A stretch of 64,000 nucleotides of DNA from a virus. This document shows positions 17,501-63,607 of the stretch, piece after piece. The position numbers and the translations under genes are program-made. Under the pieces are notes generated by a model. It was not told the DNA's origin and searched no databases. It worked only from the letters and a program-made list of their open reading frames with translations. Location of the stretch: positions 1 to 64,000 of IMG/VR virus record IMGVR_UViG_3300030616_000017; one strand, given 5' to 3'. Numbering within the stretch: the stretch's first letter is position 1; each line of letters starts with the position of its first letter.

Positions 17501-17996
17501 CAAATCTTAATTGAGTTCCACTCCATTCATGCTCAGGGGGTTCTCCTGGAGCTCCGTCCTCTCCATCTGCTCCGTCGGTGCCAGCCGGACCGCTTATATC
17601 AATCCAAGGTCCCCATGTACCTAAATAACTTTCAAACCTAAAAAGAGAGCCATCAATTTCATAATCAATAACAACAGGTCCGGGAGGCCCCTCCGGTCCT
17701 TCATCTCCTGTATCGCCTTTTTCTCCTTGGGGACCTTGGGGACCTTGAGGACCGGCAGGCCCTGTATCCCCCGTATCCCCTTTTAAATCAACATACGGCC
17801 CCCACGATCCTCCTGTATTTTGAACACTAAGAGATGTTCCATCCCAATCATGAGATAATACAAGCCCACCTCCATATGCAGCAACCCAGTCTTCAATTGG
17901 ATCAGTAACGTTGCGAAGATCGTCTTTATTCCCCGATATTCCTGTATTAGCTATTTGTAGTGCAATTACTTCATCAGCTAGTAAACCTGAAGCCAT
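7455..17996 (-). CDS. Giant modular tail fibre / adhesin, 3513 aa (collagen repeats, 3 CBM5/12-like, 3 split tail-collar, 3 LamG, 8 C-terminal C1q/BclA-like repeats)
   Basis: Gly-X-Y runs; W..G.TY...V.Y....Y CBM motifs; LPLGTIxxW / PGW.E.DG collar motifs; LamG motifs; eight TLP[A/S]GxY repeats about 170 aa apart. Confidence 0.85.
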   Translation of the reverse strand: MASGLLADEVIALQIANTGISGNKDDLRNVTDPIEDWVAAYGGGLVLSHDWDGTSLSVQNTGGSWGPYVDLKGDTGDTGPAGPQGPQGPQGEKGDTGDEGPEGPPGPVVIDYEIDGSLFRFESYLGTWGPWIDISGPAGTDGADGEDGAPGEPPEHEWSGTQLRFENPNGSWGSYVDLQGPAGPQGDPGPAGADGADGADGADGTDGEDGIAIAWEVGVTYDERAVVTYDNKYYVSLVDSNTGNTPDSSPTYWTEYLFPEPSEELPLGTIAFWDKSLEAKIKTVKATGRRTNSSTSTKLVDSDATFSTDGISAGDILWTTEWPTLEFDGTDDLIDTGVSNSIFTTYDGDSGFTIEALIKITDSTSVNPDIDNRIFTIFKASNSTIFSVGVHGNVVKTMSWDGSTHYYETGSTLSDDTIYRLSVTYNASSLKVYVNGVEDISSAIDIDFGTTYGNLTIGGFGTGADNRSFNGIISDFRVWDGVQTPSSMFERLEGTETDLDYYWKIDDGTGTTISATTGGTDGTSSGPSWTMEETLTVPSTVVSVDSETQITLDYEPLVGFFFTYTIYEEPDVQPGWIEMDGSVINDSESPFDGLTVEDIIGEERFIRARSTAGRLQSHAFQGHDWRLFNKVGGTAGGTFDQDDVPVTQDDNTTDDAYILRGLPPSTNAADWGKTGSAPIEDEFGNGAPQTAEETRPINISAIPILKIKLGTQTKLAQYYRIDGTSFHTLSLLTSLSDPDKLVIYDESTGLYKAVEIDTFYEYLNPRTLKDKYTTGWVACSDWTDQYLGDSLGSSVSHGLNLALEDLDIQVFIKDGNDFIFKASEGQGANAENLGWQPYYVDNNTIRIRTATNGIGRIETESDSANVAPLSTEAYWYNVVIRPKTYRGVKGDTGAQGPAGPQGDDGESIIGFASQWSALIAYSEDAIVEHNGVLYKATEATTAGDEPGVSSKWTEYSISERGEELPLGSIIYWDKSFEAKSKVVKESGIRDTGSASAKITDSSATFESTNVEIGDIVWLKIDANSVAVDREAYYTADGDANDSSGNGYNASIENDITYIEYENDLSAVFDGVDGWIQPGNAFYNNTRYEGTLSVWVTPRVTQEAFLFFTEDARDRVLAIHDGKFSFGIYTNAGWKMVEGGSVVAGTEYHVVATWSETTDEIKLYIDGSLVNTTSTGTIGTAGADNTDNYIGRTYMSSSLFDAGEPYNGSTFENYFDGEMNEIRIFSFAHDFTTITSLYNREDVTSYLEAWIPLNGSALDMSDNEIGGTLNGGVTWSDTGSGTEAFYFDGDEAYIELLDATDAGNAFGTGSGKFSAALWFKSTTQSGDANARIISRDVSDYWDIEVHQGEGPDQTVEFNMASTLEESVDVAVNQWHHVAFTVDNATDAYKFWVNGVLIGSGTGAAMTGSSRPIVLGHNTEATVTPGTDPFMGMIREVALYDREITDEEVAYLALDTIYEYPATVTVITSETEIGLDYEPSFDTTAPFSYKVYTAPDVQPGWMELDGSVIEDVDSPFYGETLIDMIGEERFIRARQTAGRLQAESVNNLYQVKNLRPGADGDDEITIPDDGTYSDDITLYAGGSTRHLQFKHEGVDTYPINISAIPLIKIKNSVDTALATYYEITSDGSEFKNLSSIGSLSSNDKFAVWDASTDLYKNATIKDIADFLNVEDDDRIVQLFYGTTTSGTYDLPTGYSWNDFDFILIVGDNDASGHVTSSLIPVEFFLANTDDKYPGLIIYSGAFYDAYIQYTSFTSFTVGGDTGSYQLRAVYGLKTTQLRGPAGDAPEHEFSGTNLRFKNPDGTWGNYVNVEGPQGEQGEQGEQGPQGDHGVASIWAESEVYMKGNIVSLDNDLYISLVDANINNDPALDADEDYWKLWNGFQDNIDEVPLGAIVAWHESFEAMANTPRIGDGTNYYTSSYEENKLIDARVNFEDYDVAVGDIVYNATQEIFGKVTVINGSELTLDYDTFPTAGDMYYIYPPATIHPSFEKCNGQVLSDSSSPFNGKTLPDTNSAQRFLRGSSCSGWLQSDAIRNITGTIDNVRFYTGSSASGVFSLSGVTANIGGSGGSDYADVNFNASTVVPTADENRPINMSVIYVIKVRNTNTIKWATEYRVSGGEFANFSSATEDPLTLDLLVYEPISQTYKKLNMGDVIFSYPYMRVEHNMTAGLNSLEGLFTTTNDVWFEVPLNTVKVNEISGASLAVDNVSYIYQVTLPAGKYRTNWSVPLRHSGEAQTRLRDITNGITLLTGQSGYAHTSYQHTTSSTGGGQFELLGETVIELQAVMNDAAENYDLGINANDYIPDIDIEVYSWIDFWQVNALNQTYSVDQVNNINFPPGVLFTHETAVSVADAGADQWNTTPLNTNRHNEISGATVDISNHQLTLPAGTYYLDFGQSFMYTLYSSARVQDVTHGTTIVQGTGQYHGNSSGSSATCGGKTYFTLTEESTLELQYWVDTAYSQAIAIHGGTITGTVVASHLHVLQLNEYEISHTYTVDHNLNSPPLLQVIEYFDAGNAPGDFGSANVWNKRKLNSIVHNDGSVPTGNVDLTNHQITLPAGKYYIEFSGNQYSTNHTVTRLYDATNGAELLKGKSVYAGHSAESIGSGIVETASSIVIELQQQWDSEEAANEIGPSGHPVWLYNAEIKIWTINTYDITETFTVSTDNNLNTPPLFMIEQRDSASTPTSTNTDQTWLPREFNTVAHDDSTGASLDVGNSQFTLPAGKWWIEWWENAYETQHAVDVLYDVTHGQIAIMGSRKYFNVDNIDGELIGAGYVEPTGDTVYELRHWGYTSGEDDRTWGRELVTVPVNYALNAQLRAWKVNTYDITENFTISRDNNINRPPQMLLEHRAGAGDEGGAIAADDTWTTRTLNTVVDNEIIGASLSSNQVTLPAGKYDISWVQDFYATQRSISRLYDITNSVILAEGIGTYALNTYGGSGKSVGQTTIDLLDETTIELQFAVDVNYSQVYASGLQMDNSRSLLQNETFASLRILQVEALEITREYNIQTLNTLNSPPLLHMEERHASGWTNPTTPTDDDWNTRSLNTSVLNEITGATFDSANYTFTLPAGRYFIEADFKSYRTERSRLRLYNVTTSTTELWGNSSFSGSGGGYADTSNTIAGVLVLTETSELRVDNYIQTSGSDGYVWGAETGTYEPVAYELYGRVMVWQQEALEITRTYDIENVNNINRPPILHAQQREGTGVVSGTMDTAATWETSELNTLVTNEIYSASMDTMNHTITLPAGKYDMNWYLTSYRTEHFSSRLYNVTTGATLLSGSSEMSNNGDYVASKSFGRGVIHLTEETTIRLERIGEFKTSDDDWGESVGDIFFVEHEIYADLWIEQVESYQVNRTINYDQNVEAAPLFQVEDRKAYNTDGGTFTAGAWRTRDLNTTVHNEISGASLDTGTAIITLPSGIYDVEIRCPAHDVNSHVARLYDTTNSSVLLRSANMAVGAGDYTANEAVIKGRISVLAEVEVEVQHICESTKTTYGFGLRGGDHFSVALPHETYTRAYFYKIGEIT

Positions 17997-25137: not shown

Positions 25138-26709
25138 TTAGCCTATTACTTCACTTACCGATACTGTTTGACCCACATTCACAAATTCTAATTGTACTGT
25201 CTCGGAGAAAGGAGTTACCTTAACACCAAGTGTTAGAATGAATTTCCGCTGCGCAAGAGTATTGGCATCGTTGTTGTTCGTGTCGCATTGTGCTATATAT
25301 TCTGCAAGTAAGTTCTCTGCTAAAATCGGGTCCATAATAATAGAAGTTTTAGATACAGCAAGTCTTCTGTGTAACTCATCATTCAGCTTAACAATCTGAT
25401 ACACAAGAACTTGGTTCATAACGTTTGAAATAATATAATCAAATAGTCTTCTATGAGCAATCCAAGAACTATCAGAAAGGTTATTCGGGCTCTGTGCTGT
25501 ACGTTGAGACACTATCATTGTGCCGTAAGATGGGTATTGAACAATAGGGTTAATTCCAGCAGTATCAAGAGCTTCAAGCTCTGTTTCTGTAGGATCATAC
25601 TCCATCTCAATAATTCCTGAACCTAACTGACCACCATGATTGTTTTCATCCTGCCATGCAGGAGCTCCCCCATTGTAAATGTCACTCATCTGAGCAAGCT
25701 TCACACCTACACGACCTATTAAAGAAGTCCAGAAACTTGAATTGTTATATGTATCTCTTACTTTACCCTGATTCCAATAAAAAGCTAATCCAGCATTATT
25801 CACTCCGTAGCCTTCTTTAGTTGCAATTGCTGTAGTAGAATTTTCACCCGATGGCATAGCCATAATATAGAATGAATATTTTTGGTATGAACTTCTAAGA
25901 GAATCAAAGGCTGTCACAACAGAAGGATCAGCGGTTGGATCCATAAAAATGTCTGCTGCATATTTTCTAATTTGTTTGAAATAATCCCAAGAAGCAACAA
26001 GATCACTTGATTCAGGTTCTTCTCTTGCTCCTCCTGCAAAAGCTACATAAGTAGAATCATCAACAAACCCATTACCTATATCGTAAGTAGAGTTTCTTAC
26101 TACTTGTAGGTAATCATTGTCTTCAAAGATTTCTTCGATATAAATGTTCTTACCAAATCCATCCTTTTGGTTCTCTACAAGAGATACTGTATAAGAATCT
26201 ACTAAACTATAAGTAACTCCTGAATCCTCTGTTTTGTAAAGAGCAATAGTGAAGAAGGTGGTGTCTGTATTATACGTAACCTTAACAGCTAAATCATCTG
26301 TATAAGGGCTTTTTGCTAAAAGAGCAAAATATTCATTATCACTATTAAAAGAATAACTTGATACGAGGTCGGGATCAACTCCATCTGCTAAAGCTTCTGT
26401 TCCTGCATCCGTAACAAGAACCCCACCTAATTCTGAACCTGAATTTTCATCATAAGGGGCTGCTATCCAAAGAGCATCTTGTTTACAATATTCAATTGCT
26501 TCCCAGATATCAGGATATGTTGAGCTTGGCTTACCAAAAATATCAGTAATTCTTTTCTCTTCACCTTTATTAATTTTTATAGGAACTTTAGGTCCTTTAG
26601 GAGCTCTAATAACCATTGCTCCAATTGAACCAGCTTCCCCTATAACGGTAGACGATCTATCTATTTCTTTAACAGATAATCTCCATGAATTTGATGCGCT
26701 TGCTGGCAT
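25138..26709 (-). CDS. Contractile tail sheath protein (gp18-like)
   Basis: VKEIDRS, KGP, FGKP, AGINPI...G....QRT, RRLF, QCD.NNN sheath motifs. Confidence 0.92.
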   Translation of the reverse strand: MPASASNSWRLSVKEIDRSSTVIGEAGSIGAMVIRAPKGPKVPIKINKGEEKRITDIFGKPSSTYPDIWEAIEYCKQDALWIAAPYDENSGSELGGVLVTDAGTEALADGVDPDLVSSYSFNSDNEYFALLAKSPYTDDLAVKVTYNTDTTFFTIALYKTEDSGVTYSLVDSYTVSLVENQKDGFGKNIYIEEIFEDNDYLQVVRNSTYDIGNGFVDDSTYVAFAGGAREEPESSDLVASWDYFKQIRKYAADIFMDPTADPSVVTAFDSLRSSYQKYSFYIMAMPSGENSTTAIATKEGYGVNNAGLAFYWNQGKVRDTYNNSSFWTSLIGRVGVKLAQMSDIYNGGAPAWQDENNHGGQLGSGIIEMEYDPTETELEALDTAGINPIVQYPSYGTMIVSQRTAQSPNNLSDSSWIAHRRLFDYIISNVMNQVLVYQIVKLNDELHRRLAVSKTSIIMDPILAENLLAEYIAQCDTNNNDANTLAQRKFILTLGVKVTPFSETVQLEFVNVGQTVSVSEVIG

Positions 26710-44335: not shown

Positions 44336-46264
44336 TCATTTTTTGTGACGAGACGTACCTACTACTTGATTTTTCCATTTTGCAGTTTGAGAAAAATGTT
44401 CAACCCCATACTTACTTAAATTATTCTTCTTACGTGTTTCTTTAACTTCTTTGTTTTGCATTACCCATTCTGTTCCGTATTTTTTAAGATTAGTTTGTTT
44501 TCTTTTTTCTAACACACTTCTCCACTCTTCTTTTGTATACTTAGCATGATGTTTTTTTATTTTTTCACTACTGAGTTTATTTTTACACTTTTTATCTCCG
44601 CAAGTGTCCCAATAGAACATACCTGAACCTGAAAATGCTTTTTCCTTTCCACAATAAGGGCATATAGTAGACTCATTTTGAGACTTCAAGTATTTATTGT
44701 AGTAATCTTTGCGATCAATCTCGGGGTGAGCTATTGACAAGTGTTTTTTAAGACCTTTGAGAGACTTCATATTACGTTTACAAATTTCGCAATATTCGTA
44801 CCCTTCTTTACGGGGTTCTTCATGGTGTTCTGGCTTATGAAAATAATCTATTTGCTTTTCATTATTTTTTATATTCTCTTCTACTACTCCCCATCCAAAC
44901 ACCATATTACCGCAATCCCATATACGATCAAATCCATTATTTTTCATATTTTCCCATTCAGATAATTCAGAATTAAAATCATTAATCAGTTTATGTAATT
45001 TATGTTTTTGATATTTAATTCTACTCTCTAGATTCATATAATCTTTTGTGTAAAAATAGTTTGGGGAACTGGTATTTATATATGTAAACCCATTAGTTCT
45101 ATACACTTTTCCTGTGCTGTATCTCTTATCAGCATAAGATAATATATTTTTAGGATGATAATTTTTAACAAAATGATTTAATAATTTACTAAATCCCCCC
45201 ACTATTTGTACACTATGCAAAGAAGCAAAACGATGTATCTCATATTCATAAGTATTGTACCTTGAATGACCTAGAGCAAGCACCTGAACCAATCTACTGT
45301 TTTGATCTCGCAGACCATAAAAAATAGTGCTTCCTAAATAGGATTGTTGTAAATGATTTTGTTTGAGAAAATCTTGCGCTTCCTTTTTGTTTACTTTCTC
45401 ACAAATAGTTTTACGGGCATATATTCTTTCATTAAAAATACCTAACTTGCTTAATACAAGACTTTTCACTATATCCCAATATTTTACCATCTCTACATCT
45501 AATATATGTATAACATCAATATTAAAGTAGTCCTTAAAAAAATTATTTTTTTGTATATGATAACTTCTAGGGGTATTTCCCCTTATCTCTGAGTGCCAAT
45601 ATACCCCATCTATTTCTATACCAATGTTTTTATCAGGTATGTATACATCAAGCTCTTTATTTTTACCTCCATCTATATAAAACCTCTTGTTTTTTTCATA
45701 TTTTATAGAATATTCATCAAGAAGATCGGTTATATAAAGTTCTATACCGGAAATACCTTTATACTCTTTAGGAAAACACTTAGGGCATAACGGTACCCTT
45801 CTTCCTACAGAATTACCAGTAAAAATAGTTCCGCAGTGTTTACATTTCCATTGATATTCATATCTAACTCCCTTCCACTCTGTATCTATATTAAATAGTG
45901 GTTCAGAGTGCTTATCTTGCTTCATCTCAGTTTTAATACGAGAAATACTTCTATAATAATTTTTACAAGAGGCGGAGCATAATGTAGGAAACTTTTTAGA
46001 GGTTTTATTCCATGTTACTTTTTTACCGCAATATACGCAAGTAGGATGTTTATGGAGTTCATTTTCTATGCAATATATGCGAGCATTGAAATCTATGTCT
46101 TCAGGAAGAAAATTAGTGGCTTGCTCTACTTCTCTTTTAATTTGATTAAAGAAAGGATATTTAACAGGGTCTCGATCCTCATTTAATTTATTTAAGGTTT
46201 GGGTATTTCCTTCTTTAAATAAATGTTGATACATTCTACTCTTTAAATCTTTAGTATAAACCAC
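44336..46264 (-). mobile_element. Free-standing Hef-like / Vsr-type homing endonuclease gene
   Basis: Zn-ribbons (CxxC), ELDVYIP..IGIEIDG.YWH nuclease core, ARK...HLQ...RFAS...YADKRYS.G..Y...IWDCG domain, KYG.E repeats; visibly AT-richer; next to the capsid gene. Confidence 0.75.
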
Positions 46265-46416: not shown

Positions 46417-47826
46417 TTACAGATTGTTAAGCTTCATCCGAACAATATAATTAGAATTGAGAACCTTATTATCACCAAAGTGATAAAGTCCAGTCTCTTT
46501 GTAAGCTTCTTTATATTCCAAAGTTTGAGTTTGATACAGCGGAATCAGCGAACCGAATACAATCGCCATATCGTTGCTTTCACTTGGGTTTCTCCAAACA
46601 CCAATTGCTTCGTCAGCAGGAACAATATTAGCAGGAGCAACATACACCGGCTTGCCAAGAAGCGTACCAGCTCTGTAAATACCTACTTGGGGCTGAGCAC
46701 CGTCCATGGTGAATTTGTCGTGAAGAGTAAGATAAGAGTACACATCAGAACCAACAACGAGATTGTTAATTCCACCTCTTTGAAGAGCTTTGTAGATTAC
46801 CTGACCAGCTTCAGTAAGCTTTCTTGTAAAACTCTGAGCATGGGCAACTTCACTATCAGCACCAGCAGCAGCAAAATCAGCGTTGAACTCGGTAAGGGTG
46901 TTACCCTTTGAATAACGATAAGCCATTCTAACAGCTTGGAAATCAAGAGATTTCTTCAGCTCGTCGCCGGCTCCAGAAAGAAGAGCTTCTTCAGCGTCGA
47001 TGTCAAGAGTAGTACCAAGCAGAAGCTCAGTCATCTTACTCCAAGACACATACAGCGGCCAAGGTTTGGCTCTCAGCTGGTAGTCACGAAGTTGTAACTC
47101 AACAGCTTCAATTTCATCAGTGGTTTCTTCAGAGTCGAAGAAGTACTGAACAACAACAGCAGTAGGAGTAAGTGAATCAAAATTCACAGTTACGCCACCA
47201 CTTGCAGTGTATTCAACGGTATTAGTCCCGCTTGAAAGAGCATCACCAACAAGATTACCACTACCGTCATCAACAGCAACGGGGGTATTGTCAGCAAGAA
47301 TCTTGACTGAGAAGGGGCGAAGAGGCCCATTAGCTACAGTAAGGGTCCAAGGACCGGTACCAGAACCAGAAGCTGATTCTTCTTCCATTTCAGAAGCATA
47401 ACGATAAGCTGAACTTTCGTGAGTTACATTACCATCGGTAGCTCCTCTATTGGTGGCAGCATAAACAGGGCTGAGGTAGTAAATACTATCTCTTGCAGTT
47501 ACCATCGGATAGTCGTGGAAGATTTCTCCTCTTACACTATTCGGATAACCAAGTCTGACAACGCGAAGAACGTTTTCAGGGGTTGTTGAGAACGCACTAG
47601 AGATCTGAGTCTCAGTGAGTCTTGATAGGTGGCGTTCTTGGTTTTCTAACATAATAGCAAGGCCACGAGCCTTTTGCTCATCTTTTTCCATGAGCTTATC
47701 CATGTTAGTTCCTACGCCGGGATCTTTCGACCATTTTTCAAAAAGCTGATTACCAATCTGCTTGTATTCAGAGAGGTTCTGCTTTTCTTGTTCTTTAAGA
47801 ACTTTTTCTTGCATAGCTTTACGCAT
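46417..47826 (-). CDS. Major capsid protein (T4 gp23-like HK97 fold)
   Basis: LAIMLENQ...LTE cleavage region, VVRLGYPN...HDYPM....IYYL, WS......L.....IDAEEAL, GIYRAGTL, LIPLY; strong RBS and terminator. Confidence 0.92.
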   Translation of the reverse strand: MRKAMQEKVLKEQEKQNLSEYKQIGNQLFEKWSKDPGVGTNMDKLMEKDEQKARGLAIMLENQERHLSRLTETQISSAFSTTPENVLRVVRLGYPNSVRGEIFHDYPMVTARDSIYYLSPVYAATNRGATDGNVTHESSAYRYASEMEEESASGSGTGPWTLTVANGPLRPFSVKILADNTPVAVDDGSGNLVGDALSSGTNTVEYTASGGVTVNFDSLTPTAVVVQYFFDSEETTDEIEAVELQLRDYQLRAKPWPLYVSWSKMTELLLGTTLDIDAEEALLSGAGDELKKSLDFQAVRMAYRYSKGNTLTEFNADFAAAGADSEVAHAQSFTRKLTEAGQVIYKALQRGGINNLVVGSDVYSYLTLHDKFTMDGAQPQVGIYRAGTLLGKPVYVAPANIVPADEAIGVWRNPSESNDMAIVFGSLIPLYQTQTLEYKEAYKETGLYHFGDNKVLNSNYIVRMKLNNL

Positions 47827-54221: not shown

Positions 54222-54635
54222 TTATAATAGTTTTAAATTACCAGTAATTTTATTAATTTCTTCAGACTTTGCAGGGCCTATAGCAATACAAGTAGGTGTT
54301 TTTACACCATGAAATTCAGTTAAGCCGCTATCTACAATATAAGAACAAGGTAAATTTCTTTTTTCAGCTTCCCTGTATAATTCATTTAACTCTTCCTCTG
54401 AATTACAGCTTACTACTACTTTAGTAAAAAGACCCTCCATCCAATCTCTCATATCTTCTGTTATATTCTGAATAACGCAATAATACTGATTCTCAACCCC
54501 AGCATCGATATCCATTACAGTAATATTGTCAAAAAATACTTTCATAGAAGCATGTGCTGATTGAGCTGCAATTTTTCCTTTACGCATTTTAAGGTCTTTT
54601 CTTACTACTATAACTTGTTTAATTTCTTCACTCAT
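54222..54635 (-). CDS. pth2: Peptidyl-tRNA hydrolase Pth2
   Basis: KQVIVVRKDLKMRKGKIAAQSAHA, KVVV, DSGLTEF, TCIAIGP. Confidence 0.92.
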   Translation of the reverse strand: MSEEIKQVIVVRKDLKMRKGKIAAQSAHASMKVFFDNITVMDIDAGVENQYYCVIQNITEDMRDWMEGLFTKVVVSCNSEEELNELYREAEKRNLPCSYIVDSGLTEFHGVKTPTCIAIGPAKSEEINKITGNLKLL

Positions 54636-54644
54636 ATTTTTTCC

Positions 54645-55070
54645 TTATATATAACATACTCGAATTTCTATGTTTGTATTTCTAAAAACTTCCTTTATGT
54701 CTTCCTCTGTAATCTCCCAGGGAAGCTGATCTAAACCTGAACCAATTTTAGGCATTACAATATGTTTAATTCCAGTATTCATTGCTATATATTTCATATC
54801 ATGTAAAGCATAAAAAAGATCCTGTTGTTTAGGCTTCCCAGATGATCTGGCCTTTGTAATAAGATTAAAAACTCCATGATGAAGAATACACGTAGGGTAT
54901 TTCCTTTCCTGTTCAGAGTATATGTCTTTCATCTCATAAAGATTAAACTTTTTTTTAATTGGTACAGCAATACCAGCCCCCATTCTACAATCAGATGCAA
55001 TACAATGAGCAACATGGTACTTATTAAAATCAACTGTAAAAATATCTCGCTTTTCTATGCTGTATATCAT
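54645..55070 (-). CDS. Macrodomain ADP-ribose hydrolase (TARG1/DarG/Poa1p-like)
   Basis: DIF, AHCIASDCRMGAGIA, NLITK, MPKIGSGLDQLPW. Confidence 0.88.
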   Translation of the reverse strand: MIYSIEKRDIFTVDFNKYHVAHCIASDCRMGAGIAVPIKKKFNLYEMKDIYSEQERKYPTCILHHGVFNLITKARSSGKPKQQDLFYALHDMKYIAMNTGIKHIVMPKIGSGLDQLPWEITEEDIKEVFRNTNIEIRVCYI

Positions 55071-55091: not shown

Positions 55092-55120
55092 AATATAACC
55101 AAAAAATCATATATTTTCAA
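55092..55120 (-). promoter_or_regulatory. Sigma-70-type promoter TTGAAA-N17-TATATT
   Basis: Upstream of the macro-pth2-nuclease operon. Confidence 0.65.
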
Positions 55121-55700
55121 GTGATATATCTAAATGGTTTTTGCCTTCTAAGTAGTGTTTAGCATATAAATCTTCCGGTAAATTACTAAGGATGTAGGGT
55201 TTATGATCTTTTCCAATAAATTCTACTCGATCTAAGCCAAAGTGATTAGCAATTTTTCTCCAATTTTTTATCCATTTGGATTTATCCTTTCTTTCATGAT
55301 GCTGCACATATAAATCCATTCCTCCCAAATCAAACCCTAACACTTTAACTTCCTTATATCCCTCATACAGAGCTGCTGCTACCAATGTAGATCCAGATTC
55401 TGCATAAAAATGTTTCGGTAAAGTTAATTGTTGAACACCAGGTAATTCCCAAGATCTTTTATTCTTTCCATATATTGCCATTTTTAATCGGTATTTTCTT
55501 TTGTATTTTACTGCGATTTTTAACGCTACATAATCTCCTATCAATCTATCCAAGCGGGGTAATGAGCCATTTGCAAGCTCTAAAAAAGCAGAATTACAAG
55601 CCCATATTTCACCTTCCCATTCTTGAATAAACTTAACATAATTTTTTCGGGATACGCCGTTTCCTAAAATAAGTACTTTTTCATGATTGATTTGTTGCAT
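55107..55700 (-). CDS. Maf/DUF115-like (sialyltransferase-fold) glycosyltransferase candidate
   Basis: ILGNGVSR, IWACN, SGSTL, LGFDL; paralog of 57118-57738. Confidence 0.55.
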   Translation of the reverse strand: MQQINHEKVLILGNGVSRKNYVKFIQEWEGEIWACNSAFLELANGSLPRLDRLIGDYVALKIAVKYKRKYRLKMAIYGKNKRSWELPGVQQLTLPKHFYAESGSTLVAAALYEGYKEVKVLGFDLGGMDLYVQHHERKDKSKWIKNWRKIANHFGLDRVEFIGKDHKPYILSNLPEDLYAKHYLEGKNHLDISLENI

Positions 55701-56400
55701 AACCTTTTTCCTGTAATAATGTTTCTAGTATGTTCCAATCCTCTTTTTCATCTATTTCATAAGAAGTATACGGTGGTGTAATATATAAAGAAACAGGGGG
55801 AGTTAAGCGACATTTATTGTCTATATAATTTTGAATAGAGTTTATGTATATACCTCCATTTTCTACAAATAAGCCATTATGAAAGTTCTGTCTTCTTTCT
55901 CTTTTTATAGGATCATAATTAACTGGAACTCCAACTTGTTCTATTCTAGATTTATATGTCCAGAAAAACCTTTCACTTTGACTTACACTTAACAAGGATT
56001 TACAATCAGTTTCTTCTACATATTGTGAAATAGCTCCATCAACAAAAAAAGAATTTACCCACGGAGAAGTGGCCTGAACAAGAACTATGTGATCTTCTGG
56101 CTCTCTTTTAAACACACCTTTATGTATCCAGTCCATTACCGCCGATTCAGTAGTAGCTTCGTCTGTAGCTGTCTCAATAGAACGCCAATGTATTCTACCT
56201 TTTGAAAAATAAAAAGAAACAAAAGCATCTGCATAGTTCATACTATCTAAAAGTACGTGAAACTCTTCTATATAATGTGATTTTTGAAGAGCATTACATA
56301 CCCACCAAAATAAAGGCTTTCCAAGAAAATCTTTAATGTTTTTATTCGGTATTCCCTTGGATCCGCTTCTTAGAGGAACAATCCCTATATATCTACTCAT
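55681..56400 (-). CDS. neuA: Acylneuraminate cytidylyltransferase (CMP-nonulosonate synthetase); start revised to ATG 56400
   Basis: IVPLRSGSKGIPNKN, QATSP, RRQ, ENGGIY, EIDE..DW. Confidence 0.9.
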   Translation of the reverse strand: MSRYIGIVPLRSGSKGIPNKNIKDFLGKPLFWWVCNALQKSHYIEEFHVLLDSMNYADAFVSFYFSKGRIHWRSIETATDEATTESAVMDWIHKGVFKREPEDHIVLVQATSPWVNSFFVDGAISQYVEETDCKSLLSVSQSERFFWTYKSRIEQVGVPVNYDPIKRERRQNFHNGLFVENGGIYINSIQNYIDNKCRLTPPVSLYITPPYTSYEIDEKEDWNILETLLQEKGYATNQS

Positions 56401-57118
56401 AGCTTTTTTCTCCATTTTTCGTAAATACAAAAGTTGCGTAATGAATTTTTTCTCTAATGTTAGAAATATATAAAGGTTGTAAAGAAACAGAAAGTAGGGC
56501 TTTCCAAAATTCATCTAGCATAAACGAAGTAGCACGCATATGCTTAACTTTATATTCATCTATATTCTCAATAGGCTTATAAGCTTCTTCCCCATTATCG
56601 TAGCGTATTTGAATCACTCCTACTCCGTTTACTTTCAAAGCTTGAGCTATTATTTGTAACACTTCCATAGCGTATTCTTTCGAGGGAAAATGCTGAAAAA
56701 CAGCAGTAGAAAGAAAAAGGTCAACAGGATCGTGAATCGATTCTAGAACAAATTGCGGGTTCTCTTCTATTAAAATAGGAGTAAATGTAATGTTGTTTTC
56801 TTCCGCAACCGCTTGTGACGCTTCTAAACTACGGAGAGAAATATCAATACCGATATATTTTTTTATGTAAGGAATTAAAGCATTGATATTAGAACCGCCA
56901 CCAACTCCCCACTCAGCAATTATCATTGGCCCCATTTTTCGATCTAAAAATGAGAAACCCTGTTTTATTTGCGGTAAATTCCTTTTTCCTAGACTTTCCC
57001 ACTTAGCAAGGTCTTTATAAATTCCTTTTCCTCGAATATGAGAAATGGCGTCTTGATGATCTAAATCAGAACTGTTTACCCACACATCTTTTACTTTATT
57101 AAAATCTTTTTGGTCCAT
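56393..57118 (-). CDS. Class I SAM-dependent methyltransferase; start revised to ATG 57118
   Basis: EWGVGGGSN, GIDIS, STAVFQHFP. Confidence 0.8.
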   Translation of the reverse strand: MDQKDFNKVKDVWVNSSDLDHQDAISHIRGKGIYKDLAKWESLGKRNLPQIKQGFSFLDRKMGPMIIAEWGVGGGSNINALIPYIKKYIGIDISLRSLEASQAVAEENNITFTPILIEENPQFVLESIHDPVDLFLSTAVFQHFPSKEYAMEVLQIIAQALKVNGVGVIQIRYDNGEEAYKPIENIDEYKVKHMRATSFMLDEFWKALLSVSLQPLYISNIREKIHYATFVFTKNGEKSYE

Positions 57119-57738
57119 TATACAACCTCCAAGTGATTTATACCCTGCGAATACAATTGCCAATATTTATTATCTGGCTCATCACTCAATAAATATTTTT
57201 TATGATCTTTTCCTATGAATTCAATCCTATCAAGCCCATAACTTTTGGCTATCTTGCGCCAATGCTGAATCCAATTAGTTTTATTCTGAGTATGAAGATC
57301 ATCCACGTAAATATCATAACCCCCCAAATCAAACCCAGCTAAATAAATCTTTTCATACCCCTCTACTAATGCTTTAACGGTAAGCGTGCTTCCTGAATCT
57401 CTAACATACATTGCAGGAATATTATCTAATTTTTCAACATGAGGTAAAGCTATATTTTGAGGTCGTTTAGAAAAAATTCTATAGGCAAACTTGTATTTAT
57501 CAATAGCAGCAGAAGCTTCTTTTAATGCATCGTGATCACCTGTTAGTACATTAAGCCTTGGAATGTCCTTAGTAATAAGTTCTTTGAACACGTTATTGCA
57601 GCCCCATATCTCTCCCGGCCAATGCTGTACAAATGGTTTATGCCGCAGTCTTGATACCCCGTTTCCAAGAATCAATACAGATTTTATATTTGGATTTTTC
57701 CTATAGGTGTCTAGGATTCGTTTACATTGTTCTGTCAT
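57118..57738 (-). CDS. Maf/DUF115-like glycosyltransferase candidate
   Basis: ILGNGVSR, IWGCN, DSGSTL, AGFDLGG; paralog of 55107-55700. Confidence 0.55.
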   Translation of the reverse strand: MTEQCKRILDTYRKNPNIKSVLILGNGVSRLRHKPFVQHWPGEIWGCNNVFKELITKDIPRLNVLTGDHDALKEASAAIDKYKFAYRIFSKRPQNIALPHVEKLDNIPAMYVRDSGSTLTVKALVEGYEKIYLAGFDLGGYDIYVDDLHTQNKTNWIQHWRKIAKSYGLDRIEFIGKDHKKYLLSDEPDNKYWQLYSQGINHLEVV

Positions 57739-57740
57739 AA

Positions 57741-58331
57741 CTAGTTGTACCCTTTCTTTTTAAATACTAGCATTTTTAAAAAACTACTTTCTATAAACCC
57801 CCACTGATCATCCTCAATTCTACTAAACCACCAATCTCTATTTCGAATAGTTTGATGTAAGTTTCCTATATCCTTAAACTCAGATTCTTTTTTTAGAAGA
57901 TTCGTCCAAGTCATGTTTATTTCTTTTCCATATGCAATTTTAAGAAATAAATATTTTTTACTAACCCTTTTGATTTCTTTGATAGCTTGTTCCGCGTCTT
58001 CAGGAATTAGATGTTCTAATACATCACACGAAAAGACAGCGTCGAATTTATTATCCTCAAAAGGTAATTCTACAGCAGTTGCAACTTGACAAGTTGAAAG
58101 CCCTATGGTTTTAGATTCCTGAATAGCCGTAGTAGAAACATCAACACCATATCCCTCTATTCCTTTTTCAATGAATTTTTTAACCGCCATGCCTTGTGAA
58201 CAGCCAATTTCTAATAGAGAAGAAAACTTATAGTTATCGGTTATATAGTCCACATATTTTATACCGTGATTTTTTAAATCTTTATGATAGCCTTTCCTGT
58301 ATAAAAAATCATACACTTTATAATAATCCAT
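57741..58331 (-). CDS. Class I SAM-dependent methyltransferase (Methyltransf_11-like)
   Basis: LEIGCSQG, GVDVS, LPFED..FD, DVLEHL. Confidence 0.85.
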   Translation of the reverse strand: MDYYKVYDFLYRKGYHKDLKNHGIKYVDYITDNYKFSSLLEIGCSQGMAVKKFIEKGIEGYGVDVSTTAIQESKTIGLSTCQVATAVELPFEDNKFDAVFSCDVLEHLIPEDAEQAIKEIKRVSKKYLFLKIAYGKEINMTWTNLLKKESEFKDIGNLHQTIRNRDWWFSRIEDDQWGFIESSFLKMLVFKKKGYN

Positions 58332-58994
58332 TCAATTCTCCTTTAAATGCCCAAGTCTTTGTTCTAAACTATTGATTGTTTCAGAAGATGCTTTCACTTT
58401 TCCTGAAGATATTAACTCATAAATATACCGATGATTATTATCAGAATCATGAACTGTCTGAGGTGTTTTTCTGTTTCTTTGCATTTCCGCAGCTTCCTCA
58501 ATTATAGATTCTGGCAAATACCCCGGATAATATTTTTGTTTATTATTAGAATAAAAATCCACGCCTGTAATGTGAAACTCTTTTGGCGAAGCAGAAACAA
58601 TCATATCTAAAATAATAGCACCCATTAAAGCCCCTCTAATTTCCAATACTCGGGGACTTTGAACTATTACTTCAACAGGAACACCATTATCTATAATTGA
58701 ATCATATAAAGGAGAGTTAAAACTTTTACAATATATATGCTTTAACCCCCGGGCTTTAAGTTTGTCCATATCTATTTCTTGAATATGCCTTTGAAATTGA
58801 GAATTAAAAAATAGAACTGAGTACTTACTTCCATAATCTCTATTAAAATCGGGATCATCTAAGAAAAAAACTGAACCGTTAGTTCTTACAACTATGTCAA
58901 AAGAATCAATCCATTCCCCTAACCCCTTATTTCTAATGCAAGGAGAGGGACCTACAAATATAACTTTTTTATTGGTCATATATTCTATATTCAC
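58332..58994 (-). CDS. GT29-like sialyltransferase
   Basis: VIFVGPS......G..IDSFD.VVRTN (sialylmotif L-like), ITGVDFY, H..D. Confidence 0.7.
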   Translation of the reverse strand: MNIEYMTNKKVIFVGPSPCIRNKGLGEWIDSFDIVVRTNGSVFFLDDPDFNRDYGSKYSVLFFNSQFQRHIQEIDMDKLKARGLKHIYCKSFNSPLYDSIIDNGVPVEVIVQSPRVLEIRGALMGAIILDMIVSASPKEFHITGVDFYSNNKQKYYPGYLPESIIEEAAEMQRNRKTPQTVHDSDNNHRYIYELISSGKVKASSETINSLEQRLGHLKEN

Positions 58995-59012
58995 TTAAAC
59001 CTCTTTTTTAGT

Positions 59013-60110
59013 TTAATTGCTTTCACAATATCTATTAAACTCATCAAAATTATTTTTGATAATATGAAATAAGTTTTCTTTAGCTTCTTCAATTTCCTTT
59101 TGAATTTTTCTCTTGTGCTGTAACATATATAAAGCTTTTTCTACTAGAGTTTCTTGTATTTTATCTTCATCATCCAGATCAATCATCCAGTCAAGTTTAT
59201 TTATATCTTCCAGAAAAAACTTAATTTTATTATGCACATGCAAAGACAGAACAGGAATTCCTAATCCAAAAGGAATCATCTGAGAGTGACCTCTACCTGC
59301 AATTACTAAATCGAAAGATTTATAGAAGTTAAAAGAATCTTCTACTGAGTAACGTCTTATATCAATAATAGTATGTGGAATATTTAATTCAACTAAATAA
59401 TCTAGAATTTCAACATCAAAATTGGGAGCATGAAGAACAACAGTAATTGAATACCCTTTATCTACTAATTCCTCAATCCCTTTAGCAATAGGTAAAACTT
59501 TTTGGCGAGGTGTTTCTCCGTATCTCAAAACTTTTCGATCAAAAGGAATATTTATTGCAATCTTTTTTGTTTTTCCGGGGTTTGTAGGAACATTCCACAG
59601 ATGATTAATAATTGTGGTAGTACAAGGTACAAAAGAAATATCAGTGTCTAAATCTGAAGGAAAATGAGGTAATAGTTTCTCAATATCCCCTTTATGTCTA
59701 AGACTGAAGTGAATAGTTTTTTGAGATAATAATTCTACAGAAGATAGAAATAGTTCACTTGGTTCTTGCCCCCAAAAATAATTAAACCCTACAGTAAAAA
59801 CAATAATAGGAATTTGAATACTTTCTAAGACCTCATTGCTTACTTTCCAATGCCAACCAGAAACTTCATTAGAGGATAATCCATGCGCCATAAACAGACC
59901 TCCTCCCCCCACCAGAATTACATCAACATCTTCTAAAATAGTTTTAGCATTTTCATCTGCCCATTCTCTTATATTCATAGGTTTCCATGAAATAGAGTGC
60001 TTACAAAACTTTTCAAACGTTTTTCTAACAGCATGTGTTAAGACATAGTCTCCGTAATTGCCTCTTTTTTCTGAGTAACTTAGATGTAGAATTCTTACAG
60101 GCTCACTCAT
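59013..60110 (-). CDS. Polysaccharide pyruvyltransferase family protein
   Basis: GNYGD, VGGGGLF, SLR, GRGHSQMIPFGLG.P. Confidence 0.85.
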   Translation of the reverse strand: MSEPVRILHLSYSEKRGNYGDYVLTHAVRKTFEKFCKHSISWKPMNIREWADENAKTILEDVDVILVGGGGLFMAHGLSSNEVSGWHWKVSNEVLESIQIPIIVFTVGFNYFWGQEPSELFLSSVELLSQKTIHFSLRHKGDIEKLLPHFPSDLDTDISFVPCTTTIINHLWNVPTNPGKTKKIAINIPFDRKVLRYGETPRQKVLPIAKGIEELVDKGYSITVVLHAPNFDVEILDYLVELNIPHTIIDIRRYSVEDSFNFYKSFDLVIAGRGHSQMIPFGLGIPVLSLHVHNKIKFFLEDINKLDWMIDLDDEDKIQETLVEKALYMLQHKRKIQKEIEEAKENLFHIIKNNFDEFNRYCESN

Positions 60111-60768
60111 ACGCTTCCTTATGTGATATTATCATATCTAGTTTTTCTAAAAAACGAGCATCACAACTTATATAATGTGTTTCAATTATTTCTTTTAAGA
60201 CTACAGCATTCCAATACCTCGAATGGGCTAAGTGGCCGTCTTTATGTGATTCATCTTCAAACGCTTTCATAGTTGGATGAATATACCCTTCCACATATCC
60301 ACTCCAATCTTTATTGTACACATTAGCCCGATTTATGTACATATCCATTCCAGTAAGAAAGAGGTGCTTAGGCTTTAATTTTGTTAAATAGTGGACAACA
60401 GCAACTCCTGAATACGTAAACCCTCTTTTCATTTTACTTTCCACTTCTTTGAAAGCTCGAGGAATAGCTGTATGAGGAATATCTGTATATTGCGGGTAAT
60501 TTCTTTTGAAAAGAAAATGTTTTACAAAAGGGTATTTTTTAAGGTCTGGTTTTAATTCTCTTACAAATGGATTAGTTAAAAAATGAAGTGTGTCTTTTTT
60601 TCCGTAATCTTTTTGATATTCTTTATCTTTTTGTATAAAGAGAGAGCCATTAAACTTCACCACAACATCATGTGAATCAATAAACTCTCCGAGGCGTTTC
60701 CCTTTAATAATATCACTGCTGCCAACAACAATAATTGATTTTCCTTCTACAATTTCCTTGCAATCCAT
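60103..60768 (-). CDS. GT29-like sialyltransferase
   Basis: IIVVGSS......G.FIDSHDVVVKFN...DYG.K, SG, LTGMDMY, H. Confidence 0.72.
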   Translation of the reverse strand: MDCKEIVEGKSIIVVGSSDIIKGKRLGEFIDSHDVVVKFNGSLFIQKDKEYQKDYGKKDTLHFLTNPFVRELKPDLKKYPFVKHFLFKRNYPQYTDIPHTAIPRAFKEVESKMKRGFTYSGVAVVHYLTKLKPKHLFLTGMDMYINRANVYNKDWSGYVEGYIHPTMKAFEDESHKDGHLAHSRYWNAVVLKEIIETHYISCDARFLEKLDMIISHKEAYE

Positions 60769-62039
60769 GATGTATCCTTAAAGGTTGCTTCAACCTTAAT
60801 GTTTCTATCTACAGCTTTTCGAACTCCGGGATGATGTTTACTTAAATAATCATGACCCCCTATAAAGCCGCCTCTCTTGACTTTCGGTAGCCACATTTTA
60901 ATATCCTGCTCTACGAATTCTTCTGCGTGATTACCATCAATATATACAAAGTCTAAACTCCCCTCTTTGAAATCTTTTACAGCTTCTTGAGATTTTGTTT
61001 TTATTTTAGTCACGTTAGGATATTGTGAAAGTACAAAGATATCAAATTGTTTTTCCACCTCAACCATATTATATTTAGACGGATCGGAGGCCCCGTCGTA
61101 ATTACTATAATTAGATTGCCAAGGGTCAACACAAGTTAAATGTTTAACTCTTTTAGCAAAAACTTCGGATGAATTTCCGGCAAAAGAACCAATTTCCACC
61201 ATAGTTACTTTTTCGATAGGTTTTACTCGGCTGATGTAATCACATAAATCTTCTAACCCCGAAATAGCATTTTTTGCTTTTCTTATACTAATTCTGTTCA
61301 TAATGTTCCACCATTTTTCTTCTAACTTAGCAAAATCTACCTTATCGCGGTAGTCTCTTCTTGTAATAGGATCTTGCCAAGGTTTAATAGCTACGTAATG
61401 TAGAATCTTAGCTTTATCAACTGTTTTCTTAAACTTATCACTTTTATACATTCTTTTTTCTACATTATACTCTTTAGGTAGAATTTGTGTTTTTTCTCTG
61501 AAATACTTATTTAAGCATTCTTGATCAGGCAACTTATATCCCTGTTTAATATCTTCGACTAATGCGTGATACGTTTTCTCATTTAACCATTGTTTGCCTA
61601 TAACAAATACTCCGCTATTGAAAGTACTAACAAGTCTATCACAAGCCTCTCTGTAGCTTCTCACAGCTAAAAACTCAGTATGATCTCTAAACAATAAACT
61701 TATTCTATCAAGCACTATCACATCTAAATCAATAAAAATAGCTTGTTGATACCCAAGCTTATACAAAGAAAAAATATCTAGCTTGTAATACGTATTGCGA
61801 AGATGAGGTACGGTTATTTCAAAATTAGTACCTTCATACATCTTATAATTCGGTTGAATAAATGTAAGCTTTGGATAGTATTGACGACAAAACTCTCTAT
61901 CTTTCTCTGTCATTCCTATTTCAAGAAGAACAAAATCAAGAGAAAAATCGGGATGCACTTGAAGCAGAGATTTAACAAATCCTACATAACCAGGAATAAA
62001 ATTCGGCGTAATTAGGGAGCATAAACACTTTTTTAACAT
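60747..62039 (-). CDS. GT8 glycosyltransferase fused to a Methyltransf_24-type methyltransferase
   Basis: YYKL, DLD, FNSGVF, DQ..LN, HY..KPW; then EIGSFAGNS, VDPW, YIDGNH, GGHDY. Confidence 0.85.
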   Translation of the reverse strand: MLKKCLCSLITPNFIPGYVGFVKSLLQVHPDFSLDFVLLEIGMTEKDREFCRQYYPKLTFIQPNYKMYEGTNFEITVPHLRNTYYKLDIFSLYKLGYQQAIFIDLDVIVLDRISLLFRDHTEFLAVRSYREACDRLVSTFNSGVFVIGKQWLNEKTYHALVEDIKQGYKLPDQECLNKYFREKTQILPKEYNVEKRMYKSDKFKKTVDKAKILHYVAIKPWQDPITRRDYRDKVDFAKLEEKWWNIMNRISIRKAKNAISGLEDLCDYISRVKPIEKVTMVEIGSFAGNSSEVFAKRVKHLTCVDPWQSNYSNYDGASDPSKYNMVEVEKQFDIFVLSQYPNVTKIKTKSQEAVKDFKEGSLDFVYIDGNHAEEFVEQDIKMWLPKVKRGGFIGGHDYLSKHHPGVRKAVDRNIKVEATFKDTSWIARKL

Positions 62040-62875
62040 CCACGTAAATCCTCTCTCTTTTTAAGTTCGCTGGGAAACACTTCTCTGGGCTCATACCCTG
62101 TATATGCGGTACTTAAATCTCTGATGCCTTTGACTAACTTAAAAAATCCCGAAGGCTCTATTGAGGATTTTTGATCACTCCCCCACATAGCGTGGTCCAT
62201 TGTAATGTGTGCTTCTACCCATTTAGCTCCTAGGTAAATAGAAGCAATGGTTGGTATAATTCCATAATAGTGATTGCTGTAGCCTGCACAAATATGAGGC
62301 CACTTATCCTTTATCCACTCAATATAGCGCAAGTTTAATTCTTCTACGGGAGTAGGATAGGCAGAGTTGGTGTGCATAAGCACGTGAGGTTGTAGCAAAC
62401 TGACTGCTTCTGCAACTTCTTGTTCATTACTCATACCAGAGGACATAATCCTAAATCTGAAATTCTCTTTACAAAACTGTAAAAGTTCTTTGTTGGTAAT
62501 ATGAGCGGAAGGAATTTTGACAATTTGTGTCAGTTCGGTCATAAATTGAGCGCTCTCTATGTCCCAAACAGAAGCAAAAAAGCCAATGTTGTTCTCTTTT
62601 GCTTTTTTACTGAGATACAAGTACTCATCTCTATCAAACTCAATGTCTTTTTTGTATTGAAGGTATGTGGTGGGATCTTTTCGCCAAGGAACAATTTTCT
62701 CTTGGTTTTTCTTCTCAGGAGGAACTGCTTTATCTGGGTCTCTTTTTTGGAACTTTACATAGTCCGCGCCAGATAAAGCAGCTACTTGAATTAACTTTAC
62801 AGCTGTATCGACATCTTTTCCTTTTTCCTCTGTTACCGCATTGATACCTATTTCTGCAATAATATTTACTTTCAT
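62033..62875 (-). CDS. neuB: N-acetylneuraminate / nonulosonate synthase (short form lacking the C-terminal SAF domain)
   Basis: IIAEIGIN, VKFQKR, ASVWD, KIPSA, H.NSAYP, GYSNH, E.HIT.D..MWGSDQ. Confidence 0.9.
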   Translation of the reverse strand: MKVNIIAEIGINAVTEEKGKDVDTAVKLIQVAALSGADYVKFQKRDPDKAVPPEKKNQEKIVPWRKDPTTYLQYKKDIEFDRDEYLYLSKKAKENNIGFFASVWDIESAQFMTELTQIVKIPSAHITNKELLQFCKENFRFRIMSSGMSNEQEVAEAVSLLQPHVLMHTNSAYPTPVEELNLRYIEWIKDKWPHICAGYSNHYYGIIPTIASIYLGAKWVEAHITMDHAMWGSDQKSSIEPSGFFKLVKGIRDLSTAYTGYEPREVFPSELKKREDLRGC

Positions 62876-62918
62876 CTTTGCTATATCCTTTTCTATATAG
62901 TTTTTACTTGGAACGTTA

Positions 62919-62930
62919 CATTATATTAGT
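62919..62930 (-). promoter_or_regulatory. Late-promoter motif variant ACTAATATAATG at the head of the glycosylation operon
   Basis: 11/12 match, about 45 nt upstream of neuB. Confidence 0.65.
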
Positions 62931-62959: not shown

Positions 62960-63607
62960 TCAAGGAGATAAATATCGCCTGAGATCCTGCTGAATATCTT
63001 TAAGACGAATTTGTATCCATTGAGTAGTATATCCCATTTTTTTCCCAATAGCGTTATAAGTATAACCGCCCAGCCTCATCTCTAGCATAGAGCTATCTTC
63101 TACAGAAAGACTCTTCTTGAAAGAATCAATAGTAATCTTTAAATCTATATCACCCCCGAAACTTTCGTAGTTCTTAGAAGCGCAAATAGAATTATCTATT
63201 CTTTGATCTATTCCTGCTAAAGAGTCGTTAAAGGAATGAGTTACAAGAGCTGCTTCAGGGAGAGGGGTATGTCGGGGTCTTTTTTTTCTTCCGTCCACTT
63301 CAAAAACGGAAAATCTTTCTTTCGTGGCATATCTTTTTATTTGATTGCGAAGAATGTAGTTAAAAATTGCCCAAATCTTCCAAGTAGAAGAATTAGTGAT
63401 TTTATTAAGTTGCACGTTATTTACTGCTTTTTGCATAGAAAAATAGGCATCTGATACAAAATCCTGTTTATCTTCCCTGGTAAACCCATATATTTTGCCT
63501 ATTTTAAAGGCAGTATGGGTTATAAAAGGTTTGTATTTTTCATACAAAGCATATAACATGTCATTATTTCCATTTTTTGCAGCTACTACCATTTGGTAAT
63601 CGTTCAT
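62960..63607 (-). CDS. Phage-encoded sigma-70-family RNA polymerase sigma factor
   Basis: Region 2 (A.NG....LYEKY.PFI...A...EDKQDF) and region 4 HTH (GYTYNAIGKKMGYTTQWI). Confidence 0.8.
   Translation of the reverse strand: MNDYQMVVAAKNGNNDMLYALYEKYKPFITHTAFKIGKIYGFTREDKQDFVSDAYFSMQKAVNNVQLNKITNSSTWKIWAIFNYILRNQIKRYATKERFSVFEVDGRKKRPRHTPLPEAALVTHSFNDSLAGIDQRIDNSICASKNYESFGGDIDLKITIDSFKKSLSVEDSSMLEMRLGGYTYNAIGKKMGYTTQWIQIRLKDIQQDLRRYLSP

Follow-up and report, generated by a model that had tools for sequence, protein, structure and literature searches.

The viral record IMGVR_UViG_3300030616_000017 of IMG/VR is a single contig of 147,158 bp with a CheckV completeness estimate of 100%, and its first 64 kb, the stretch of DNA that was analysed here and is referred to as the window, contain an operon predicted to encode the synthesis, activation and transfer of a sialic-acid-like (nonulosonic acid) sugar. 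Structural genes in the window include those for a T4-type portal, a gp23-like capsid protein (46417-47826), the tail sheath (25138-26709), baseplate proteins and a tape-measure-like protein, and the virus, which is uncultured, is therefore a contractile-tailed phage. Its capsid protein is at most 27% identical to those of cultured phages, to any of which the phage is only distantly related, and when the operon was searched by blastn in 50,697 phage records, no match was obtained.

Organization of the operon

The operon consists of ten co-directional open reading frames (ORFs) on the minus strand, designated g1 to g10, that are arranged head to tail from 62875 to 55107, each gene overlapping the next or lying very close to it (Table 1). 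With the internal ATG of g8 at 57118 and that of g9 at 56400, the successive junctions from g1 to g10 measure -7, -22, -8, +18, 0, +2, -1, -8 and -20 nucleotides (nt). In silico, these tight junctions, with at most 22 nt of overlap and at most 18 nt of spacing, show an arrangement that would couple translation of the genes. An earlier annotation of this DNA, made without database searches and referred to here as the sequence-only reading, had described the gene content as it is found here and had counted nine genes where the ORF list gives ten. It had also stated that the products contain no transmembrane segment, and all ten proteins indeed appear soluble, since a crude Kyte-Doolittle scan detected in none of them a hydrophobic 19-mer typical of a membrane span. 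Seven of the ten had no match in PHROGs.

Table 1. Predicted features of the operon and of the region directly upstream (aa, amino acids; SAM, S-adenosylmethionine; CMP, cytidine monophosphate).
Feature	Position	Strand	Remarks
Virion-regulon (late-type) promoter 11-mer, ACTAATATAAT	62920..62930	-	55 nt upstream of the neuB ATG
Sigma-factor-like gene	62960..63607	-	phrog_351, 1.4e-11; weak Sigma70_r2, 4.8e-4; directly upstream of the operon and outside it
g1, NeuB-family phosphoenolpyruvate-aldose condensing synthase	62033..62875	-	280 aa, no SAF domain; PF03102, 2e-58
g2, GT8 retaining hexosyltransferase fused to a Methyltransf_24 SAM methyltransferase	60747..62039	-	PF01501, PF13578
g3, minimal soluble GT29-like sialyltransferase-fold protein	60103..60768	-	221 aa; PF00777
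g4, polysaccharide pyruvyl transferase (CsaB-like)	59013..60110	-	PF04230, 1.5e-15; weak CsaB match
g5, second GT29-like protein, paralog of g3	58332..58994	-	GTG start after a GAGG ribosome-binding site; PF00777
g6, class I SAM methyltransferase	57741..58331	-	PF08241, 1e-17
g7, small transferase-like protein with a Maf/GT42/MptE-like fold	57118..57738	-	206 aa; no Pfam or PHROG match
g8, SAM methyltransferase	56393..57118	-	PF08242, PF08241, PF13649; likely ATG at 57118, 1-nt overlap with the g7 stop codon
g9, CMP-ulosonic-acid synthetase (cytidylyltransferase)	55681..56400	-	likely start ATG at 56400; PF02348, 6e-18
g10, paralog of g7	55107..55700	-	48% identity, BLASTP 1.6e-62

Downstream of g10, after a gap of 36 nt, lie genes for a macrodomain protein and a Pth2 peptidyl-tRNA hydrolase (54222-55070 (-)), which a sigma-70-like site at 55120-55092 may provide with a promoter of their own. 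A downstream gene that PHROGs labels 'phosphatase' was considered as a phosphatase of the haloacid dehalogenase (HAD) type acting on Kdn or Neu5Ac 9-phosphate, and was rejected because its product is the macrodomain protein.

The operon shares its promoter sequence with virion genes

The window contains 14 copies of the 11-mer ACTAATATAAT, one of which heads the operon, where 0.10 copies would be expected, and all copies are located on the minus strand, which is the gene strand, 11-55 nt before start codons. Besides neuB, the genes preceded by it include the tail sheath gene, the baseplate wedge operon, the tape-measure-like gene and the portal gene, and a copy with one mismatch is found 156 nt upstream of the major capsid gene. 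The identical 11-mer is present approximately 40-50 nt upstream of neuB in the relatives L002 and L005, although their NeuB proteins are only 52-53% identical and the flanking DNA is different. The sequence-only reading had assigned to the operon the promoter of the virion genes, and this agrees with the exact copies at the tail and portal genes, the one-mismatch copy at the capsid gene, and the conservation upstream of neuB in both relatives. The operon thus appears to be a member of the virion regulon of this phage, for which the sharing of the 11-mer and its conservation constitute the best available evidence. The product of the sigma-factor-like gene, which is itself preceded by a strong terminator-like hairpin with an 11-bp stem (63668-63644), may be the reader of the ACTAATATAAT promoters. 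A further gene with a late-type 11-mer of its own, at 46314, is located directly downstream of the major capsid gene and encodes an HNH/homing-endonuclease-like protein of 642 aa (44336-46264 (-); phrog_3339, 5e-97).

Predicted sugar synthesis and activation

The product of g1 matched the NeuB family profile PF03102 with 197.9 bits (cut-off 22.1) over profile positions 1-236 of 241, and its best match in the PDB, 6ncs, likewise has no SAF domain. The residues E25, K53, Q55, K129, S132, H215, E234, H236 and D247 of Neisseria meningitidis NeuB, which serve in metal binding, phosphoenolpyruvate (PEP) binding or catalysis (PMC8208679), all have equivalents in g1 and vary little or not at all among 81 viral sequences. 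The activating enzyme is probably g9, which scored 65.9 bits against PF02348 (cut-off 22.6).

Neither protein could be placed in a functional subclass. The scores of g1 against the equivalog models for N-acetylneuraminate synthase (TIGR03569) and PseI (TIGR03586) amounted to 176 and 119 bits, below the respective cut-offs of 399.65 and 340.25, and the best NCBIfam match of g9 was PseF, with 77 bits at a cut-off of 205.7, followed by KdsB subfamilies. The search of the whole phage genome for Epimerase_2/NeuC, dehydratases of the short-chain dehydrogenase/reductase (SDR) family, DegT aminotransferases, HAD phosphatases and GT2 glycosyltransferases detected none of these, in line with the absence of a NeuC epimerase noted by the sequence-only reading. 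As the phage encodes no NeuC, dehydratase, DegT or HAD phosphatase, the host must supply the precursor of the sugar, and the most economical guess is a Kdn-type route from a non-amino sugar, mannose or mannose 6-phosphate, or the use of N-acetylmannosamine (ManNAc) made by the host. The NeuB tree displays a corresponding pattern: loci in the subclade to which the window belongs all lack dehydratase, aminotransferase and 2-epimerase genes and have kept GT8, Methyltransf_24 (MT24) and GT29-like genes, whereas other viral NeuB subclades adjoin dehydratase, DegT aminotransferase and NeuC-like genes, neighbours that indicate a sugar of the legionaminic or pseudaminic type.

Four compact transferase-like proteins

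Four operon genes encode small proteins of transferase-like fold. The Glyco_transf_29 profile (PF00777) was matched by g3 with 36.2 bits and by g5 with 26.3 bits (cut-off 23), in both cases in the region of sialyl motif L only, and the two proteins are 27% identical (BLASTP 5e-21). A structural model of g3, with a mean predicted local distance difference test (pLDDT) score of 96.4, retrieved with Foldseek 42 PDB matches at E<=1e-3, all 42 of which are GT29 or GT42 sialyltransferases. Superposition on ST3Gal-I (2wnf) gave a Z score of 12.9 and a root-mean-square deviation of 2.9 A over 166 residues, and that on CstII a Z score of 12.4. The model thus has the GT-A variant 2 sialyltransferase fold, and as a GT29-type enzyme g3 would hand a CMP-bound sialic acid on to a glycan acceptor. 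In the alignment of the g3 family (A3), His182 is invariant, a Gly occupies the motif-S position and a GxDFY block is present. Motif III, HY[FWY][ED], is clear in many GT29-like relatives and degenerate in g3 and g5. A tblastn search with g3 identified LR756508.1 as its sole match.

The paralogs g7 and g10 share the invariant motifs VLILGNGxSR, WxCN, DSG, GFDLGG and DHK. Neither matched any Pfam family at E<=0.01, including MptE-like PF01973, a profile that was matched only by more distant neighbours in other loci, and there below its cut-off. The g7 model (pLDDT 93.8) resembles Maf (5mu5, Z 10.6), the MptE pyrophosphokinase (Z 10.1), Cst-I and CstII (Z 10.0-10.1) and the Pasteurella sialyltransferase (Z approximately 10), with no single best class among them; because g7 is only 206 aa long, the flanking domains with which Maf binds flagellin are absent. 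A structure search, as the sequence-only reading had proposed for the transferases, was carried out with the g3 and g7 models; its significant matches were exclusively sialyltransferases for the former, and Maf, MptE and GT42 proteins alike were matched by the latter. The g7/g10 family is rare, with 234 representative clusters among 1.84 billion; most of its members are tandem two-domain proteins, and all of the ESM Atlas clusters closest to the family are viral. A tblastn search gave no match for g7, nor for g9. The g7 and g3 families were aligned by hhalign with a probability of 84% (E 7e-6), and an iterated g7 hidden Markov model (HMM) also picked up g5 and g3. These profile links and the fold matches together place g3, g5, g7 and g10 in one sialyltransferase superfamily, cut down to about 200-220 residues.

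Predicted enzymes for further glycan modification

The GT8 domain of g2 (PF01501, 2e-20, residues 6-223) scored 73.8 bits at a cut-off of 24.3 and contains the DxD motif as DLD in '...FIDLDVIVLD'. It is followed by the Methyltransf_24 domain (PF13578, 6e-19, residues 281-398), and the two domains are encoded by separate genes in L002 and L005. The match of g4 to PF04230 is full-length, with 58.3 bits (cut-off 25.3) over profile positions 1-276 of 280. The best NCBIfam match of g6 is a Pse-associated methylase, at 47 bits and thus below the cut-off of 112.

Distribution of the module among viruses

A NeuB profile built from alignment A1 was used to scan IMG/VR, in which a query with a single NeuB sequence retrieved no loci. 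The scan detected the NeuB clade on 437 contigs, including giant-virus bins. Among 185,579 species genomes approximately 13 close matches were found, all of them in metagenome-assembled genomes (MAGs), and some of these adjoin the same viral genes. No cultured phage record contained this NeuB, and tblastn returned two uncultured viral records and one bacterial contig. Metagenomes contain thousands of NeuB relatives without a SAF domain, with lengths of 271-290 aa. As judged from these searches, the NeuB clade is almost entirely viral.

For 80 of the viral loci, which were fetched and subjected to an HMM census, a cytidylyltransferase was found in 55, a GT29-like protein in 40, MT24 in 29, GT8 in 22 and a member of the g7/g10 family in 19. 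The four transferases of the operon had been called unusual in the sequence-only reading, which holds only in a relative sense: at least one ORF of this kind is found in 46 and at least two in 17 of the 80 loci, with three ORFs at most. In several unrelated lineages of viruses, the cassette is immediately adjacent to genes for baseplate or tape-measure proteins. The close relative L002 carries a sulfotransferase, a UDP-glucose dehydrogenase, a GT2 glycosyltransferase and another MptE-like gene, where the window has the pyruvyltransferase; through this swap the anionic decorations vary between relatives, as would be expected of an exposed structure. Overall, the locus appears to be one member of a widespread and apparently undescribed viral module rather than an oddity of a single phage.

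Two further observations concern these relatives. In L002, a 140-kb relative, the UDP-glucose dehydrogenase of the cassette (L002:14930-16057) apparently contains an intein-like insertion (weak Intein_splicing match, 2.7e-4) behind its central domain, with the C-terminal domain in the next ORF. Moreover, the 42.7-kb viral contig L027 and L084, the 2.3-Mb chromosome of a 'Thermoplasmatales archaeon' MAG (CP070724.1), share the same cassette together with the same tape-measure-like and other viral neighbours, which suggests that the copy in the archaeal MAG is a provirus or a mis-binned virus.

Proposed pathway and its acceptor

In the pathway that we propose, g1 would condense PEP with a hexose supplied by the host, and g9 would activate the resulting ulosonic acid with cytidine triphosphate. 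The GT29-like proteins g3 and g5 and the Maf/GT42-like proteins g7 and g10 could then move the activated sugar to different acceptors or in different linkages, while the GT8 domain of g2 may add a hexose from a host UDP-sugar, and the three methyltransferase domains and the pyruvyltransferase would cap the glycan. The promoter would be of the type that serves the sheath, baseplate and portal genes and would probably be recognised by the upstream sigma-like factor, and since the operon uses the promoter of virion genes, the glycan is proposed to be made during virion assembly.

There is good support for the assembly of an anionic glycan late in infection and in the cytoplasm, its timing being read from the shared promoter. 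That the locus forms a self-contained glycan line of this kind whose likeliest acceptor is at least one virion protein, which would give the particle an anionic and variable coat, is a proposal to which we attach slightly less than an even chance. Virion decoration is our best guess for the target, and virion proteins are favoured because of the shared promoter, the adjacency of the cassette to structural genes in other lineages and the decoration swaps among relatives, and by the precedents of mycobacteriophages and chloroviruses. The soluble proteins and the shared 11-mer thus uphold the part of the sequence-only reading that described a cytoplasmic pathway under a late-type promoter, while the virion target that it had named is not established by them. 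A candidate acceptor could be the 3513-aa protein encoded at 7455-17996 (-), which is likely a giant fibre or adhesin and contains collagen triple-helix repeats, several ConA-like Laminin_G_3 domains, a CBM5/12 carbohydrate-binding module and a Ser/Thr/Gly-rich stretch near residue 506.

Several points weigh against this proposal. Promoter sharing is the only pointer to late expression, and the acceptor is not pinned to any one virion protein: the search for Ser/Thr-rich tails on virion proteins, of the type that is glycosylated in mycobacteriophages, found a single stretch, which is the one in the 3513-aa protein. Between g10 and the macrodomain-Pth2 genes no terminator or stable hairpin was found. 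The substrate pocket of g1 appears non-canonical, because the equivalent of Glu134 of N. meningitidis NeuB is His in g1 (Leu in 70 of the 81 clade members) and Arg314 of the SAF domain is absent from this protein, which ends at 280 aa. Both NeuB and the CMP-synthetase are far below every NCBIfam equivalog cut-off, and their sequences assign no sugar type. Finally, soluble transferases and the absence of a flippase suit the modification of host lipooligosaccharide (LOS), capsule or flagellin equally well.

In that alternative, the same enzymes would act at the cytoplasmic face on glycoconjugates of the host envelope, such as the core of LOS or lipopolysaccharide (LPS), capsule, S-layer, pilin or flagellin, and the host would export the product; the phage receptor would thereby be hidden at a late stage of infection, which would prevent superinfection or keep progeny from being lost on cell debris. 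CstII and other known sialyltransferases of LOS and capsule work in the cytoplasm as soluble or peripheral proteins, and what they make is exported by the machinery of the host. Because CstII-type enzymes rely on host export in this way, the missing flippase and polymerase do not rule against a host-surface target, and the operon proteins are as soluble as LOS transferases. Moreover, all characterised bacterial relatives of the folds (CstII, Cst-I, the Pasteurella sialyltransferase and Maf) act on the host surface, GT8 enzymes and pyruvyltransferases are typical of the synthesis of LPS and cell-wall polymers, and the dependence on host-made precursors would fit a host that already owns such a pathway. 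However, the operon has a virion promoter that is conserved in relatives, and the timing that this implies would allow hardly any surface turnover within a lytic cycle. No integrase-type context of lysogenic conversion was seen in the annotated part of the window, and in several lineages the cassette adjoins structural modules. We regard a host-envelope target as the strongest competitor of virion decoration and a serious one, although in itself less likely than not.

The presence of several transferases together with capping enzymes also resembles an assembly line for repeat units, and the transferases of 200-220 aa are minimal and come without accompanying acceptor-binding domains. Both features could point to a free or lipid-linked anionic oligosaccharide or polymer, either a matrix resembling capsule or exopolysaccharide or a small-molecule conjugate, that alters the infected cell or the lysate. 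This is improbable, since no priming phosphoglycosyl transferase, polymerase, flippase or exporter is encoded. The only multi-span membrane protein of the phage is a nucleobase permease of the xanthine/uracil family (genome 90616-91827 (+), L126:2617-3828; PF00860, 2e-75; 11 hydrophobic segments), and the genome therefore contains no candidate for a flippase or polymerase, as the sequence-only reading had maintained.

Packaged DNA, which had been put forward as the other possible target, fares worst, and attachment of the glycan to phage DNA as a hypermodification is considered highly improbable. Phage glycosyltransferases do hypermodify DNA, as has been reported in a study that mentions no sialic or CMP-sugar chemistry (bioRxiv 10.1101/2023.12.21.572611), and the methyltransferase domain of g2 matches a PHROG labelled 'DNA methyltransferase'. 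Nevertheless, the genome encodes no thymidylate-synthase homolog of the hydroxymethylase type and contains instead, just past the window, a homolog of QueC of the 7-deazaguanine pathway (genome 66899-67522 (-), locus L125, 1e-65), and the promoter of the operon is of the virion-gene type and not of the replication-gene type.

Beyond virion decoration in this phage, we consider it possible, with somewhat less assurance than for the single case, that the particles of many uncultured tailed phages, and of some giant viruses, bear a coat of a sialic-acid-like, anionic glycan that the virus itself produces by means of the SAF-less viral NeuB clade and minimal soluble relatives of animal sialyltransferases. 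The phage described here would then be a clear case, with the whole pathway in the virion-promoter regulon and the sugar derived from a common host metabolite. Animal cells and some bacteria are known to use sialic-acid-like sugars as camouflage of their surface and as signals for recognition, and to our knowledge these sugars have not been described as products of bacteriophages. If phage particles bear such sugars, the view of how phage surfaces make contact with hosts, particles, grazers and mucus would change, and so would the explanation of the 'auxiliary' sugar genes that form a common block in viromes and the supply of compact (approximately 200-aa) soluble enzymes with a sialyltransferase fold for glycoengineering. 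A prokaryotic origin has been proposed for the sialyltransferases of eukaryotes (PMC5811610), and both the NeuB clade of viruses and the GT29-like proteins are relevant to that proposal.

Comparison with known systems

With the nonulosonic-acid islands of bacteria, which combine NeuB, LegI or PseI with a CMP-synthetase and a CstII-type GT42 enzyme or Maf, the locus has in common a synthase, a cytidylyltransferase, sialyltransferase-superfamily proteins, SAM methyltransferases and action in the cytoplasm. It differs from them in being viral, in its virion-gene promoter, in a NeuB without the SAF domain and the Glu134 equivalent, in the lack of NeuC, dehydratase and aminotransferase genes, in transferases of approximately 200-220 aa without acceptor-binding domains, and in missing all equivalog cut-offs.

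Compared with GT29 enzymes, including the prokaryotic homologs, ST3Gal-I, ST6Gal1 and those of pox- and herpesviruses, g3 and g5 share the motif L region, the invariant His at the place of motif VS and, in the g3 model, the fold of ST3Gal-I, whereas they have no membrane anchor or stem, are approximately 50 residues shorter and display a degenerate motif III. Bacterial GT29 homologs have been reported in a study that does not mention phages (Petit et al. 2018, PMC5811610), and some proteins of uncultured phages have already received the label 'GT29' by automatic annotation in UniProt.

The CMP-Kdn pathway of Bacteroides thetaiotaomicron and Prymnesium parvum consists of a NeuB-type synthase and a cytidylyltransferase, without NeuC, and starts from a common mannose-type metabolite (PMC6200933). 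A route of this kind would explain the precursor genes that are missing from the phage, as it runs without NeuC on such a metabolite. The phage differs in having no HAD-type Kdn-9-phosphate phosphatase and no sequence-level assignment of its enzyme to the Kdn synthases.

Glycosylation of virions is known in mycobacteriophages, for which O-glycans on capsid and tail-tube proteins are mentioned (Freeman 2023, as cited in PMC12691614), and in chloroviruses. The A064R protein of chlorovirus PBCV-1 is a fusion of two glycosyltransferase domains with a methyltransferase that acts on capsid glycans and methylates the sugar that it helps to install (PMC9614988). The locus described here shares with these systems the virus-encoded, soluble glycosyltransferases that are expressed, or in the present case would be expressed, alongside structural proteins, and g2 resembles the A064R fusion. 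However, neither the mycobacteriophage nor the chlorovirus systems use a nonulosonic acid or a CMP-sugar, and attachment to the virion is a proposal in the present case. Sialic, nonulosonic or NeuB chemistry does not feature in a 2022 review of the glycans of giant viruses (PMC9614988), and a literature search found no paper on phage-encoded NeuB or NeuA or on virus-encoded nonulosonate synthesis. The enzymes of the locus are thus of known kinds, and what sets it apart is the viral clade of SAF-less NeuB proteins, the minimal soluble transferases, the wiring to a virion promoter and the precursor-free architecture.

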